Below, piece by piece: positions 599 to 35,675 of a stretch of DNA of 64,000 nucleotides. The stretch lies in the NCBI GenBank assembly GCA_963704385.1, contig OY969904.1:4908825-4972824 (forward strand), in the 5' to 3' direction. Numbering within the stretch: position 1 is the first letter of the stretch; each line of letters opens with the position of its first letter. Under the pieces are notes generated by a model, which had not been told where the DNA came from, ran no database searches, and worked only from the letters and a program-made list of their open reading frames with translations. Both the position numbers and the translations under genes were made by a program. Source of the DNA: an uncultured Solirubrobacterales bacterium (lineage in GTDB: Bacteria > Actinomycetota > Thermoleophilia > Solirubrobacterales > Solirubrobacteraceae).

Positions 599-1839
599 GA
601 CAGCCTGCTCCCCCGCAGGATCGTCGGGATCACGTCGGTCCGGCGGAGCTCGCGCTCCTGGCCGGACTCCATGTCCCTGAGGCTCGCCGTACCGTCATCG
701 CCGATGATCGCCACGTACCGGGCCCCGATCCGGTCGGCGTGCCTGAGCTGGCCCCTGAGCGAGCGGCCGGCGAGCTCGAGCTGGGCTTTCAGCCCGGCGC
801 GGCGCGCCTCGTTCGCGAGGTCGAAGGCCTCGGGTCCGCCGGTCGGCACGGCCACCGCGACGTATAGGTCCACGAGGGCCGGCGAGGTCGGCAGCTCCCC
901 GGCGGCCAGCAGCATTCGCTCCAGGCCTGCCGCCCAACCGCAGCCCGGCGTGGGCGGACCGTCCAGCTGCTCGATCAGTCGGTCGTAGCGTCCTCCGCCG
1001 CCCACGCCCGACTGCGCCCCGAGGGCGTCGCTCTCGAACTCGAACACGGTCCGCGTGTAGTAGTCCAGTCCGCGGACCAGCGTTGGGTCCAGCTCGTAGC
1101 GGACACCGGCGCCGTCGAGCAGGGCACGCACGTGGGCAAAGTGCTCAGCGTCCTCGGGCGCGAGGCGGCCGAGGAGGGTGGGCGCGTTCTCCATGACGGC
1201 GCGGGTCCGCGTGTCGGAGGCATCGAACGCGCGCACGGGGTTCTGATCGATCCGGTGGCGGACCTCGTCTGAGAGCTCCTGCTCGTGTTCGCGCAGGTAG
1301 GCCTTGAGCTCCTCCCGGTACTCGGCCCGCGTCTCGGGCGTGCCCAGGCTGGAGATCCGAAGCCGGGCGCCCCGTACGCCGAGGGAGTCCAGCAGGCCGT
1401 CGAGCAGCACGATCAGCTCAGCGTCCGTCTCCGGCTCGGCGGAGCCGATCGCCTCGGCGCCGATTTGCCAGAACTCCCGGTAGCGTCCTCTCTGCGGCGC
1501 CTCGGCCCGGAAGAAGCTCGACAGGTACCAGAGCTTCACGGGCTGGGGGAGCTTGTGCATCCCGTGCTCGAGGTAGGCCCGGCACACCGGCGCCGTGCCC
1601 TCGGGCCGGAGCGTGAGCGAGCGTCCGCCGGCGTCGGTGAACGTGTACATCTCCTTCTGGACGATGTCCGTCGCCTCCCCCACCCCGCGCGCGAACAGCT
1701 CCGTGTGCTCGAACGCGGGCGTCTCGATCCGCTCGTACCCGGCGGCCTCGAGAATCCGCTTGGCGTGCGCCTCGGCGACCTCGCGGCGGGCAGCCTGATC
1801 GGGAAGCACGTCGAACGTGCCGCGCGGGGCCCTGATCAC
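595..1839 (-). CDS. hisS: Histidine--tRNA ligase
   Basis: APRGTFD, QKEMYTF, LRPEGTAPV, QRGRYREFWQ, LVRGLDYYT, GGGRYD motifs. Confidence 0.97.
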   Translation of the reverse strand: MIRAPRGTFDVLPDQAARREVAEAHAKRILEAAGYERIETPAFEHTELFARGVGEATDIVQKEMYTFTDAGGRSLTLRPEGTAPVCRAYLEHGMHKLPQPVKLWYLSSFFRAEAPQRGRYREFWQIGAEAIGSAEPETDAELIVLLDGLLDSLGVRGARLRISSLGTPETRAEYREELKAYLREHEQELSDEVRHRIDQNPVRAFDASDTRTRAVMENAPTLLGRLAPEDAEHFAHVRALLDGAGVRYELDPTLVRGLDYYTRTVFEFESDALGAQSGVGGGGRYDRLIEQLDGPPTPGCGWAAGLERMLLAAGELPTSPALVDLYVAVAVPTGGPEAFDLANEARRAGLKAQLELAGRSLRGQLRHADRIGARYVAIIGDDGTASLRDMESGQERELRRTDVIPTILRGSRLS

Positions 1840-31999: not shown

Positions 32000-32815
32000 A
32001 TGAGCTTCACGGTTGACCTATCCTCACGCGTAGCAGTGGTTACCGGCGCGAGTTCCGGAATGGGCGCACGCATTGCGGGAGCCCTCGCGGCGTCAGGTGC
32101 CGCGGTCGCGTTGAGCGGACGCGACACGACCCGTCTTGAGCGAGTCGGGAGGCAGATACAAAGCGCGGGGGCTGAGTGTCACACTATTGTGGCCGACCTC
32201 GAAGAGGATTCGGCTGGCACCGCCATCGTCGACAAAACCGTGGAGCGGTTTGGCAGGCTCGACATTCTCGTCTGTTGCGCGGGTGTCCTCCACATCGGGC
32301 TCCTCGAGGAGACGTCGCTGGAGACCCTCGACCTTCAGTGGCGAGTGAACGTTCGGGCGCCTTTTGCTCTCTCGCAGGCGGCGATTCCGCACCTGCGGGA
32401 GGGTGGGGGCTCGATCGTGTATTTCATCTCGCCGGCGGGGGAGATCGGGCAGGCATATGCCGGCGCGTACGGCATGAGTAAGGCGGCGCTCGCGCAGCTG
32501 ACTCGGACGCTCGCGGTTGAGCTCGCCAGCGACGGCGTGCGCGTGAATGCCATCTCGCCGGGCTGGATCGAGACACCAATGAACGCTGAGCTCCGACAGG
32601 ATCCGATGGTGGTTGCGCTCGCTCTCGCGACGACCCCCGCCGGTCGCCTGGGAAGTCCGGACGACATTGCCCCGGCGGTTCTGTTCTTGGTCTCGGATGC
32701 CGCTGACTACATCACCGGAGCGATTCTTCCGGTGAGCGGCGGGTATCCATCACTTCCCAGCAGCCTTCTCGCTAAGGAGGAGCGGGCCTCCCAATCCGTG
32801 GCGCACGCCGACTGA
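32000..32815 (+). CDS. SDR oxidoreductase
   Basis: TGASSGMG, YGMSKAA, NAISPG. Confidence 0.92.
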   Translation: MSFTVDLSSRVAVVTGASSGMGARIAGALAASGAAVALSGRDTTRLERVGRQIQSAGAECHTIVADLEEDSAGTAIVDKTVERFGRLDILVCCAGVLHIGLLEETSLETLDLQWRVNVRAPFALSQAAIPHLREGGGSIVYFISPAGEIGQAYAGAYGMSKAALAQLTRTLAVELASDGVRVNAISPGWIETPMNAELRQDPMVVALALATTPAGRLGSPDDIAPAVLFLVSDAADYITGAILPVSGGYPSLPSSLLAKEERASQSVAHAD

Positions 32816-32895
32816 AGGTCGACCTCGGGGGAGCTGGTGCGTCCTCGTCGGCTGGCCTGCAGGTCCGCCTGATCGCGCCCAAGGAGAACGAAGCC

Positions 32896-33134
32896 ATGAG
32901 TGGTTTCGTCGCGGCGCGACTACCATAAGAGCGTTGCCGGACAGTCTTACTCAGCGACGAACCCTCGGTGCGCCGCTGGTGGCCGGCTGGGCGATCTACT
33001 TGACCGTGGTTTTGGCATCGAACGCCACCGATTTACCCATTTTGTTTGGATGGTTCCGGACCTCAGTCATCAGCCCCGACGATCGCTTCCATGCGATGGA
33101 CGCCTCGGAGCGCACGATCGCAAAGGCGGCATGA
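32896..33134 (+). pseudogene. Degraded small membrane-protein gene
   Basis: AAGGAG SD plus ATG 32896 stops after 10 codons; another frame gives hydrophobic LVAGWAIYLTVVLASNATDL. Confidence 0.35.
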
Positions 33135-33161
33135 GCAGTTAGGCGCGGCGGGCCCGCCCTG

Positions 33162-34642
33162 AAGGTCGCCGGCCCTCCGCGTCGAACGACATACGTCGAA
33201 GGCACGCGCGGGTAGCAGCCGCGCGGCCGGTCATTCGAGCACGAAGGGCCGACCGGGACCCAACGGTATGCGATGGGTCGGGCTGAACGCTGCCCGCGTC
33301 AGGTTCGACGCGAGGAGACGAGCAATGACGATCGTGATGGGTCTTGACCAGCACCGAGCGCAGATCACCGCGGAGTGGGTCGACACCGACACGGGTGAGA
33401 TTGGCCGTAGCCGGGTGACGCCGGCTAACCGAGCGACGGTGCGGCGGTTCCTTGAGCGCTTCCGGGGCCGGCGGCTCGAGGTGGCGTTGGAGGCGACGAC
33501 CGGCTGGCGGTTTGTGGTCGAGGAGCTTGAGCGGGTCGGCGCGGCTGTGCATCTCGCCGAGCCGGCGGAGACCGCGGAGCGGCGGGGGCGCAAGAAGCGC
33601 GCGAAGACCGATCGGGCCGACGCCAGGCTGTTGCGGGAGCTGGTGATGACCGGCCGCCTGCCAGAGTCGTGGATCGCGCCCGGGCACATCCTCGACCTCC
33701 GCGCGCGTGTGCGGCTGCGCCACACACTGGTCGATCAGCGCGGCGAGTGGCAGCAGCGGATTCACTCGGTCCTCTACCACCACGGCGTGCCGCAGCGCCG
33801 AGGGCTCGGGCTGTTGACCGCCGACGGCCGCGCCTGGCTCGCGCGCGGGCCGCTGTCGCCGGCGGCGCGCGAGCAGGTCACCGTCGCGCTCGCGATGATC
33901 GACAAGCTCGACGCCCAGCTCGCGCCGATCGACAAGCAGCTGCGTGCATACGCGCGCCGGCAGCCAGGCTGCAAGGCGCTGATGGGCCTCTACGGTATCG
34001 GTCACCTGACCGCGGTCACGATCCTGGCCGAGCTCGGCGACGCCCGCCGGTTCTCCTCCTCGCGCGACGCCGTCCGCTACTCGGGCCTGGACATCACGGT
34101 CAGCCAATCCGACCGGCGACGCGCACCCGGGCACCTGAGCCGCCAAGGCCCCCCCGCGCTTCGCTGGGCACTGTATGAGGCCGCCCAGTCAGCCCACCGC
34201 AAGACCAGCCCCGACCGCGACTACTACCTCCAAGCGGCCGAGCGCCTAGGCAATAACCGTGCCTGCTTGGCGATCGCGCGCAAACTCCTCAAGCGCAGCT
34301 ACCACACCCTGCGCGAGCTCGGCGACGAGGCGCTGCAGCCCGCGTGACATCCGACCGTGCGCGCGCAGTCCTCACTCACACCGATGCGCCGCGGCCGGCT
34401 CCCGTCAGTCGCCTGCCGCCACGTCCCCGCGTGGACGGCCTCCAAAGACCGAGCGGCCGCAACGCCTACCCCCAGCGGGATCACACCCCATCAACCATCA
34501 TGTCGCCGAGCCACCACACCAACAGGCTCGCGGACCGAGATAAGGCTGGGCGCCCGCGCGCACACGACACCCCACTACCGACCCCGACCAGCAACTTCTT
34601 CACGACCGGAGGGCTTGACAAGGGCCGACAGCACAGATAAGG
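33162..34642 (+). mobile_element. IS110-family insertion sequence (ends inferred)
   Basis: IS110 recombinase, no terminal IRs, shared AAGG at 33162-33165 and 34639-34642, TTGACA near right end. Confidence 0.75.
33325..34347 (+). CDS. IS110 family recombinase/transposase
   Basis: GLDQH (D), ALEATTG (E), KTDRADA (DxxD), GIGHLTAVTILAELGDARRFSS, SQSD (Tnp Ser); GAGGAG SD. Confidence 0.95.
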   Translation: MTIVMGLDQHRAQITAEWVDTDTGEIGRSRVTPANRATVRRFLERFRGRRLEVALEATTGWRFVVEELERVGAAVHLAEPAETAERRGRKKRAKTDRADARLLRELVMTGRLPESWIAPGHILDLRARVRLRHTLVDQRGEWQQRIHSVLYHHGVPQRRGLGLLTADGRAWLARGPLSPAAREQVTVALAMIDKLDAQLAPIDKQLRAYARRQPGCKALMGLYGIGHLTAVTILAELGDARRFSSSRDAVRYSGLDITVSQSDRRRAPGHLSRQGPPALRWALYEAAQSAHRKTSPDRDYYLQAAERLGNNRACLAIARKLLKRSYHTLRELGDEALQPA

Positions 34643-35105
34643 CGACGTAGGAGGCGTCCGCATCCGGCTCTGCGACGCCGGGCGCTGGACGAGTGCAATC
34701 GCCCAATCTCAAGAGTGGGCCGACCGGTCCTGGCGATCGCTTTCGCAGTCCGGCGTAAGTCGGGCCCACGATCCCTTCGGCGACATCTGGATCACCAAGG
34801 GTCGCGGGGCCCGAACGAGTGCTCCGCCACGATCTCGATGGTGAGGGCCAGCCCAGCCGCGCGATCGCCTTCGCCCAAATTCGAGCGAGGATCGGCGCCA
34901 AGCGAGCCTGGCGCGGGTTCAGCTTTGCCCGCAATCCGATCGAAAGCTTGGCCAGGTCGGACCGGGCAAAGCACTCGTGCGCGGCGGTGCGCGCTGCGAG
35001 CCGGGCCGACGACCGCCGCGGACCTACGTTCCTTGCCGCCGGCTTGCGACCGTCGGGTGGCAGGACGTAATGTGGGCCTCTCGGCGTCAACCTGGGAGGT
35101 CCCGG

Positions 35106-35675
35106 ATGTCAGAAGCCCCCGAACAGCTCGCTTTCGACGAGGACTTTGACGAACTCCGTCGGTTGCTCGGCCCAGTTGACGACATTCCGACTGGCTCGAC
35201 CGAGCACGCATTCGCTGCCCGTTACGGGGAGCGTCTGCCCGAAATTCAACAAAAGCTCGGCACGATCCGTGCTCGTCTGAACGACGCCCAGCAGGCCGTG
35301 AAAAGGGTGACGAGTGAACTGCCAGACGAGAAGGATCCCGCGAAACAGAGTCAACTTGCGGTCCAAGCGCTAACCGCCCTCGGAACAGTTGAGGCAAACG
35401 TAAACGATGTTGCCGCAACGGCTGACCTGAGCCTACTCGGGCTTGGGTCTGTAGCGACAACATCACAATCGGCTGCGCCAGTAGCCGCATCGCTAGGAGT
35501 GTTCGGAGGATTCATCAACAAGGTCAAAGCTACGCTAGGCAAGATCAACGCCAGCCTGATCAGCTTCCTAGCCAAGTACATGACATTCCAATCGTGGACC
35601 GTCTCTGGCCAGCTGACTGGTGGGGTTCCTTGGCTGAGTGGCTCAGTCACGCTCGCCCTGACGTTTGGTCCCTGA
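35106..35675 (+). CDS. Hypothetical protein (helical/coiled-coil with hydrophobic C-terminus)
   Basis: GGAGG SD, 189 aa, visibly more A/T-rich codons than flanks. Confidence 0.75.
   Translation: MSEAPEQLAFDEDFDELRRLLGPVDDIPTGSTEHAFAARYGERLPEIQQKLGTIRARLNDAQQAVKRVTSELPDEKDPAKQSQLAVQALTALGTVEANVNDVAATADLSLLGLGSVATTSQSAAPVAASLGVFGGFINKVKATLGKINASLISFLAKYMTFQSWTVSGQLTGGVPWLSGSVTLALTFGP

Follow-up and report, generated by a model that had tools for sequence, protein, structure and literature searches.

Insertion sequences (IS) of the IS1111 group encode seekRNAs in which the segment complementary to the top strand lies 5' of the one complementary to the bottom strand, the reverse of the order in IS110/IS621 (Siddiquee et al. 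2024, PMC11187229), and the bridge RNA of IS1111 elements is located in the right end (Durrant et al. 2024, PMC11208160). An element of this kind was analysed here in a window of 64,000 nucleotides of contig OY969904.1 from an uncultured Solirubrobacterales bacterium; all positions given below are those of this window, and all features described in it lie on the plus strand. The stretch 33126..34641 (1516 bp) is very probably a single, largely intact IS1111-type element of the IS110 family, with a two-loop bridge/seek RNA on its 3' side and a guide-less leader on its 5' side, and the only duplication at its target is the shared core triplet. It is present in one copy in the 5.14-Mb host genome (Solirubrobacterales). 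The assignment to the IS1111 group is based on features of the element, most of which appear to agree with those of the group, and not on the placement of the transposase in a tree.

The non-coding region that follows the stop codon of the transposase gene is 294 nt long and contains a conserved block of about 170 nt. Folding of 57 unique sequences with RNAalifold gave a bridge/seek RNA core of about 167 nt (34391..34557) with two loops. The target-binding loop (34391-34460) consists of helix A (34391-34401/34451-34460) and the distal hairpin B (34415-34439), and the donor-binding loop (34475-34557) of stem C (34475-79/34553-57), helix D (34502-09/34528-35) and a variable distal hairpin. Within the target-binding loop, the right target guide (RTG) GTCGCCT at 34408..34414 is the reverse complement of AGGCGAC at 34640-34646, which is made up of the core bases AG and the right flank. 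The left target guide (LTG), CAAAG+A at 34443..34448, is the same as the left flank CAAAG (33121-25) followed by the canonical first base of the element. In the donor-binding loop, the right donor guide (RDG) CCATC at 34495..34499 is the reverse complement of G^ATGG (the caret marks the junction), the canonical left end, which reads G^GCGG in the window copy. The left donor guide (LDG), AGATAAG with an additional G (34538..34545), is the same as the right end at 34635-41, the additional G corresponding to the first base of the right flank. All four guides of the element lie in the 3' RNA, with RTG 5' of LTG and RDG 5' of LDG. A cmscan search of 32500-35300 against Rfam gave no match at E <= 1.

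Related copies are numerous within the genus, and a scan of reference genomes yielded 80 further loci, almost all of them in metagenome-assembled genomes of Solirubrobacteraceae/Solirubrobacterales, with transposases 75-88% identical. Mutual information was calculated between every column of the RNA and every junction position in 77 non-redundant elements from Solirubrobacterales genomes, and the highest-scoring pairs formed the very diagonals that guides should give. RTG was complementary to the flank at positions +1 to +5 (0.97, 0.94, 0.84, 0.90 and 0.81, respectively), and LTG was identical to the left flank at -5, -3 and -2 (0.95-0.99). For the donor side, RDG was complementary to position +4 of the left end (0.97), CCATC being paired with ATGG ends and ACATC with ATGT ends, while LDG, which reads AGATAAG or AAGTAAG, was identical to the right end at -6 and -5 (1.00). 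The RTG match amounted to 4.75/7, against 3.0 ± 0.12 after permutation of the pairing of elements and junctions, with a maximum of 3.42 over 1000 permutations. An earlier reading of this locus, made from the letters only and called here the sequence-only reading, had proposed an RNA-guided element, and the four covarying guides bear this out. The repeat of the right end to which it drew attention (AGATAAGGC at 34538-46 and 34635-43) is a true donor guide, as LDG covaries with the right end. All strings cited in that reading were found at the positions it gave, and the AGATAAGG repeat, the TTGACA box and the hairpins go beyond chance, being conserved or covarying in the relatives.

The base directly 3' of the LDG core equals right-flank position +1 in 99% of the elements, compared to 52% after permutation. 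Next to the LTG core, on its 3' side, stands A, with which the element canonically begins. The handshake guides of IS621 are situated 3' of its right guides and pair with the non-cognate top strand, at positions 6-7 to the left of the core (Hiraizumi et al. 2024, PMC11208158), whereas here the cross-loop base 3' of LDG matches right-flank +1. By analogy, this base may stand for a mirrored 'handshake' on the bottom strand in IS1111-type recombination. No description of such a base for IS1111 was found in the literature searched, the coverage of which was partial.

The ends of the element could be fixed at 33126 and 34641 by comparison with relatives. In one relative genome, three identical copies have in common only the stretch from CAAAG^ATGGCATGAG... 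to ...CAGATAAG^CGGG, the right boundary of which is also written ...CACAGATAAG^CGGG. With junctions placed in 85 relatives, the consensus of the left junction is (A/T)(A/C)G^ATG(G/T)CATG and that of the right junction CA(GA/AG)TA(A/C)G^flank. The left half of the target ends at 33125 with the core triplet AAG (33123..33125), and the right half extends over 34642..34706. The left terminus GCGGCATGAGCAGT (33126..33139) constitutes the right donor half and includes the subterminal repeat arm TGAGCAG (33132-38). The right terminus (34629..34641), constituting the left donor half, includes the other arm, CAGCACA (CTGCACA in relatives), the core AAG (34639-41) and, as TAAG, the first four bases of a split -10 box. 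The core varies between AAG, TAG and ACG in step with LTG, LDG and the right end: in the closest relatives of the window element, left flank, LTG, LDG and right end all show ACG, and in another lineage left flank and LTG show TAG. The 7-bp subterminal inverted repeat arms also covary between lineages (TGAGCAG/CTGCACA vs TGTCCCG/CGGGACA).

These results bear on a different arrangement put forward in the sequence-only reading, in which the guides are split between both non-coding ends, TACGTCG at 33192-98 reads the right flank and the element starts at 33162 or 33166. It rested on an exact 7-nt reverse complementarity of TACGTCG to 34643-49 and on the occurrence of AAGG near both proposed ends, the left one at 33162-33165. 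We regard this arrangement as extremely improbable. TACGTTG is found at the same bulge in four relatives with unrelated right flanks, which makes the match to 34643-49 a chance one, and the covariation with targets that had been suggested as a check for the 5' segment is absent, no 5' column forming a diagonal with any junction position. Homology of the window to the multi-copy relatives begins at 33121 and not at 33162, so that the element starts about 40 bp further left, at 33126, and AAGG at 33162 is not its end; the three identical copies likewise diverge only upstream of CAAAG. Moreover, the full set of four covarying guides is already contained in the 3' RNA.

With all guides placed in the 3' RNA, the guide RNA would pair the joined ends of the circle (...CAGATAAG^ATGG...) with the target (...CAAAG^GCGAC...). 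The right half-sites would be read by RTG in the target and RDG in the donor, and the left half-sites together with the core by LTG in the target and LDG in the donor. Insertion would then occur at the shared core, and the target would not be duplicated. The guide RNA is presumably expressed and bound by the transposase.

The transposase gene (33325..34347, ATG at 33325) encodes a protein of 340 amino acids, which fits the IS1111 range of 330-350 amino acids. The affiliation to the IS110 family, already recognized in the sequence-only reading, is confirmed by the Pfam domains PF01548 (DEDD_Tnp_IS110, E 1.2e-13) and PF02371 (Transposase_20, E 2.4e-19) and by NCBIfam NF033542 (208.6 bits, cutoff 140). 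In an alignment with the solved ISCro4 transposase (9t56), residues D8, E56, D96, D99 and S262 fall on catalytic positions; S262, located in VSQSD, matches the serine of the SG motif of ISCro4, and the residue following it is D and not G. The locus therefore combines the features of the IS110 family: both domains, the DEDD residues with the C-terminal serine, the lack of terminal inverted repeats and the absence of target duplication beyond the core.

Some observations speak against an intact IS1111-type element or weaken single parts of this assignment. At the IS1111 motif GL-P----S(T)G the transposase reads GLDITVSQSD, in which GL and the serine are kept and P and G are not. LTG of the window copy matches just 5 nt plus the core region, and its subterminal repeat is imperfect, with 5/7 positions matching. 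Finally, the relatives settle the ends, as the sequence-only reading had hoped from other copies, but the empty site that it had also called for was not found: the 300-bp left flank has no match in 120 genomes of the genus. For this reason the exact crossover position, inside the core or adjoining it, is deduced from paralogs and the junctions of relatives. The flanks of the element belong to a low-copy repeat, of which three uninterrupted copies align collinearly over the joined flanks, the window reading CGATCGC-AAAG-GCGAC and the repeat paralogs CGATCGC-TCG-GCGAC and similar. The alignment with the paralogs agrees with a simple insertion into a target with a single copy of the core. Besides the locus itself, this stretch matches the host genome only at a paralog of the target repeat.

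A promoter at the circle junction has been documented for ISEc11 (PMC11187229). In the present family, circle formation would join the -35 box of the right end to TAAG^AT and thereby create a promoter. The end and promoter statistics were obtained from 67 unique end pairs: a -35 box TTGAC[AGC] is present in 58/67 (TTGACA at 34615..34620 in the window), the spacer to the -10 box is 17 nt in 46/67, and the -10 hexamer of the joined ends is TAAGAT in 54/67, while the same hexamer position never has T at its end in integrated copies. The circle-junction promoter, which the sequence-only reading had derived from TTGACA (34615-34620), a 17-nt spacer and TAAGG (34638-34642), all of them present, is therefore borne out for the family as a motif, TTGACR, 17 nt and TAAG^AT being conserved. 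For the window copy the proposed hexamer TAAGGT does not hold. Its junction, predicted as ...CAGATAAG^GCGGCATG..., is TTGACA-N17-TAAGGC and unique among the 67, a degenerate promoter because the left end starts with GC and not with AT, as 54/67 unique relative ends do. The same GC mismatches RDG and the base after LTG. With the T of the junction -10 box lost and the pairing with RDG weakened, this copy may be poorly mobile.

The right flank, too, begins with the GC found at 33126-33127. A possible second case is relative L018, in which left end and right flank both read GGGGCA. Such matching bases may point to an aberrant resolution or a conversion at the junction. A staggered-cut or heteroduplex origin of the GC terminus was rejected as a general rule, with 54/67 ends starting with AT and no right flank beginning with AT.

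Poor mobility could be taken one step further, to a copy that is by now an inactive relic whose structured ends have no function in the present host genome. The single copy in the genome, the imperfect subterminal repeat and the GC dinucleotide, which is unique among the 67 ends, loses the -10 T of the junction and mismatches RDG, would all agree with this. On the other hand, the reading frame of the transposase is intact with its catalytic residues present, the 3' RNA is complete and conserved, and RTG matches the current flank over 7 contiguous positions. We consider a relic possible, though on the whole doubtful, and prefer the reading of a largely intact element. Signs of decay were seen in other members of the family: in L049 the right core is mutated to AGG although its LDG has ACG, L058 is without the right terminus TAAG, the left terminus of L055 is truncated or altered, and the left core of L102 is AAC.

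On the 5' side of the transposase gene, a structured leader module with helices P1-P4 was identified at 33158..33283 (126 nt; 122 bits with the covariance model R1). This model gave about 165 matches in 45/101 genomes of the genus, with one in the host genome; the tally includes one match from the unpublished genome G066, none of whose sequence is used. An IS110-family transposase gene was located downstream in 18/20 of the lower-scoring matches checked, with 28-75% identity to the window transposase, and at least one distant element with the leader (L023) has a seekRNA-like region on its 3' side as well. P1 is formed by GGYCGG-CCUCC and GGAGG-CCGACC. A pairing of GGTGGCCGG with CCGGYCA, given by RNAalifold, was rejected as it fails in distant clades, and GGTCGG-CCTCC with GGAGG-CCGACC is preferred on pair counts. 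Over P1-P4, 88% of the cells are paired and 79 double-change cells were counted, compared to 29.6 ± 4.7 after shuffling; the pairing collapses on sliding the partners, and the frequent G-U pairs fit the sense strand. The region also contains the hairpins CGCGCGG (33205-11)/CCGCGCG (33219-25) and GACCCA (33257-62)/TGGGTC (33274-79). No column of the leader was consistently identical or complementary to any junction position, and no diagonal of guide covariation was seen. Among near-identical transposases, left ends are either short (about 85-140 nt) or long (about 194-234 nt), the latter with the conserved module. The leader is common to several transposase clades, swappable between close relatives and guide-less.

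A long-range stem connects the 5' arm at 33174..33187 with 33303-33315 (13 pairs, with C 33177 bulged), and its 3' arm together with the Shine-Dalgarno sequence (33303..33317) partly covers GAGGAG at 33312-17. This stem competes with the leader helix P2 and covers part of the ribosome-binding site, which suggests a translational switch. Most likely the leader controls the translation of the transposase, because it can pair with the ribosome-binding site in this subclade. The short left end also buries its ribosome-binding site in a long stem. Two points limit this assignment: the covering stem is confined to the one subclade, where a single compensatory change (C-G to U-A, in L084) was found, and the alignment behind the pair counts of the leader had been fitted to a related model. 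The stem described in the sequence-only reading as reaching the Shine-Dalgarno sequence is real within this subclade.

The 5' module could instead be a second, non-programmable RNA cofactor or a transposase-binding decoy, acting in autoregulation, end synapsis or excision rather than as a plain translational leader. Its architecture resembles a single bridge-RNA loop with closing stem, internal loop and distal hairpin. It is linked to transposases 28-37% identical and is present or absent among near-identical ones, and this wide linkage together with presence and absence points to a portable functional module. In addition, 26 IS elements with two long non-coding regions have been listed without explanation (PMC11187229). 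However, the module has no sequence similarity to the loops of the 3' RNA, and relatives without it (type B left ends) appear complete and occur in multiple copies; the module is therefore not essential. We judge the cofactor or decoy improbable and retain control of translation as the preferred role of the leader. It is likewise unlikely, in our estimate, that the leader represents a new class of transposon RNA, which would be portable and non-programmable, common to IS1111-like elements with transposases down to about 30% identical, and would act as a transposase-responsive switch or second RNA cofactor by toggling between the module fold and the stem that hides the ribosome-binding site.

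Among plasmids, the best match was found on pDK3 of Rhodococcus sp. DK180 (L177, 328232-331048), with a transposase 55% identical; the range of the family therefore extends past Thermoleophilia. The left end of this relative is short and its 3' RNA scaffold is that of the window element; its left flank reads CCCGAAAG^ATGACATG and its LTG is CCCGGAAAGAA. It is located between a GAF/ANTAR gene and a WhiB gene, in a cultured host, and might be usable as a model for experiments. Naming of the element from plasmid matches was rejected, as those matches carry the label 'IS110 family' only.

Many relatives (L007/L036/L037, L047-L051, L053) contain an additional structured insert of some 110-150 nt, situated between guide RNA and right terminus. 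It reads TAGCGCCAGCACGGCGCC...GGCGCTGG..., is absent from the window copy and represents a second optional module. A large lineage (L010, L040, L039, L086) targets GAAAG^GAGCA, which resembles a ribosome-binding site, and several copies of it are situated about 8-15 nt upstream of ATG, GTG or TTG, with the right end of the element abutting the gene start.

The target of the window element is a dispersed non-coding repeat of about 100 nt, present here at 33083-33125 and 34642-34706 and reading GATCGC...CGATCGC-NNNG-GCGACNTAGGAGGCGTC...GGCTCTGCGACGC..GGACGAGTGCAATCGCC. One other copy is found in the host genome, and there are copies in two other genomes of the genus; the loci are L002 (about 1500-1640, minus strand), L020 and L022. 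The repeat gave no match in Rfam, and no further copy of it was found within the window. Its interpretation as the leader of a conserved gene was rejected, the flanking coding sequences lacking conservation from copy to copy.

The kind of element described here is known from the papers of 2024, and taken alone the main finding is an ordinary one, the confirmation of that mechanism in an uncultured lineage of soil actinobacteria. The leader and the donor-loop base that tracks the first right-flank base of the target are only modest additions to it. As a set of about 80 natural variants, with three cores and with guide-target pairs that can be read, this one guide-RNA family could help to set the programming rules of IS1111-type recombinases, which are less studied than IS621.

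Compared to known systems, the element is most similar to ISEc11, ISKpn4, ISPa11 and ISPst6 of the IS1111 group, in which the guide RNA likewise lies downstream of the gene for the transposase (PMC11187229). It also shares with the group a guide order with the top-strand complement 5' and the top-strand match 3', subterminal inverted repeats (7-17 bp in the group, 7-bp arms here) with no target duplication, a putative circle-junction promoter and a transposase length of 340 amino acids. It differs from the group in the SD found in place of the SG motif, in the additional long conserved 5' module and in its host, which belongs to the actinobacterial class Thermoleophilia; to the copies matched on enterobacterial plasmids the window transposase is only about 26% identical. 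With IS621 and the IS110 group (PMC11208160, PMC11208158) it has in common the two loops, in each of which a left and a right guide include the core, a donor made up of the joined right and left ends, a predicted promoter of split sigma-70-like form, and a cross-loop base in the donor loop matching the target, which is comparable in idea to the handshake guides. In contrast to IS621, the RNA is located in the right and not in the left end, the order of guides within the loops is reversed, and the shared core is a triplet (AAG/TAG/ACG) instead of CT; a bridge RNA of the IS621 type, in the left end and with the left guide first, was not found, the 5' region carrying no guide covariation. ISHvo10, ISAcp5 and 24 others are similar by description in having long non-coding regions on both sides of the transposase gene. 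Those were only counted (PMC11187229), whereas here the upstream region is a conserved structured module, and a guide-less conserved leader of this kind may explain the two long non-coding regions of some IS110/IS1111 elements.

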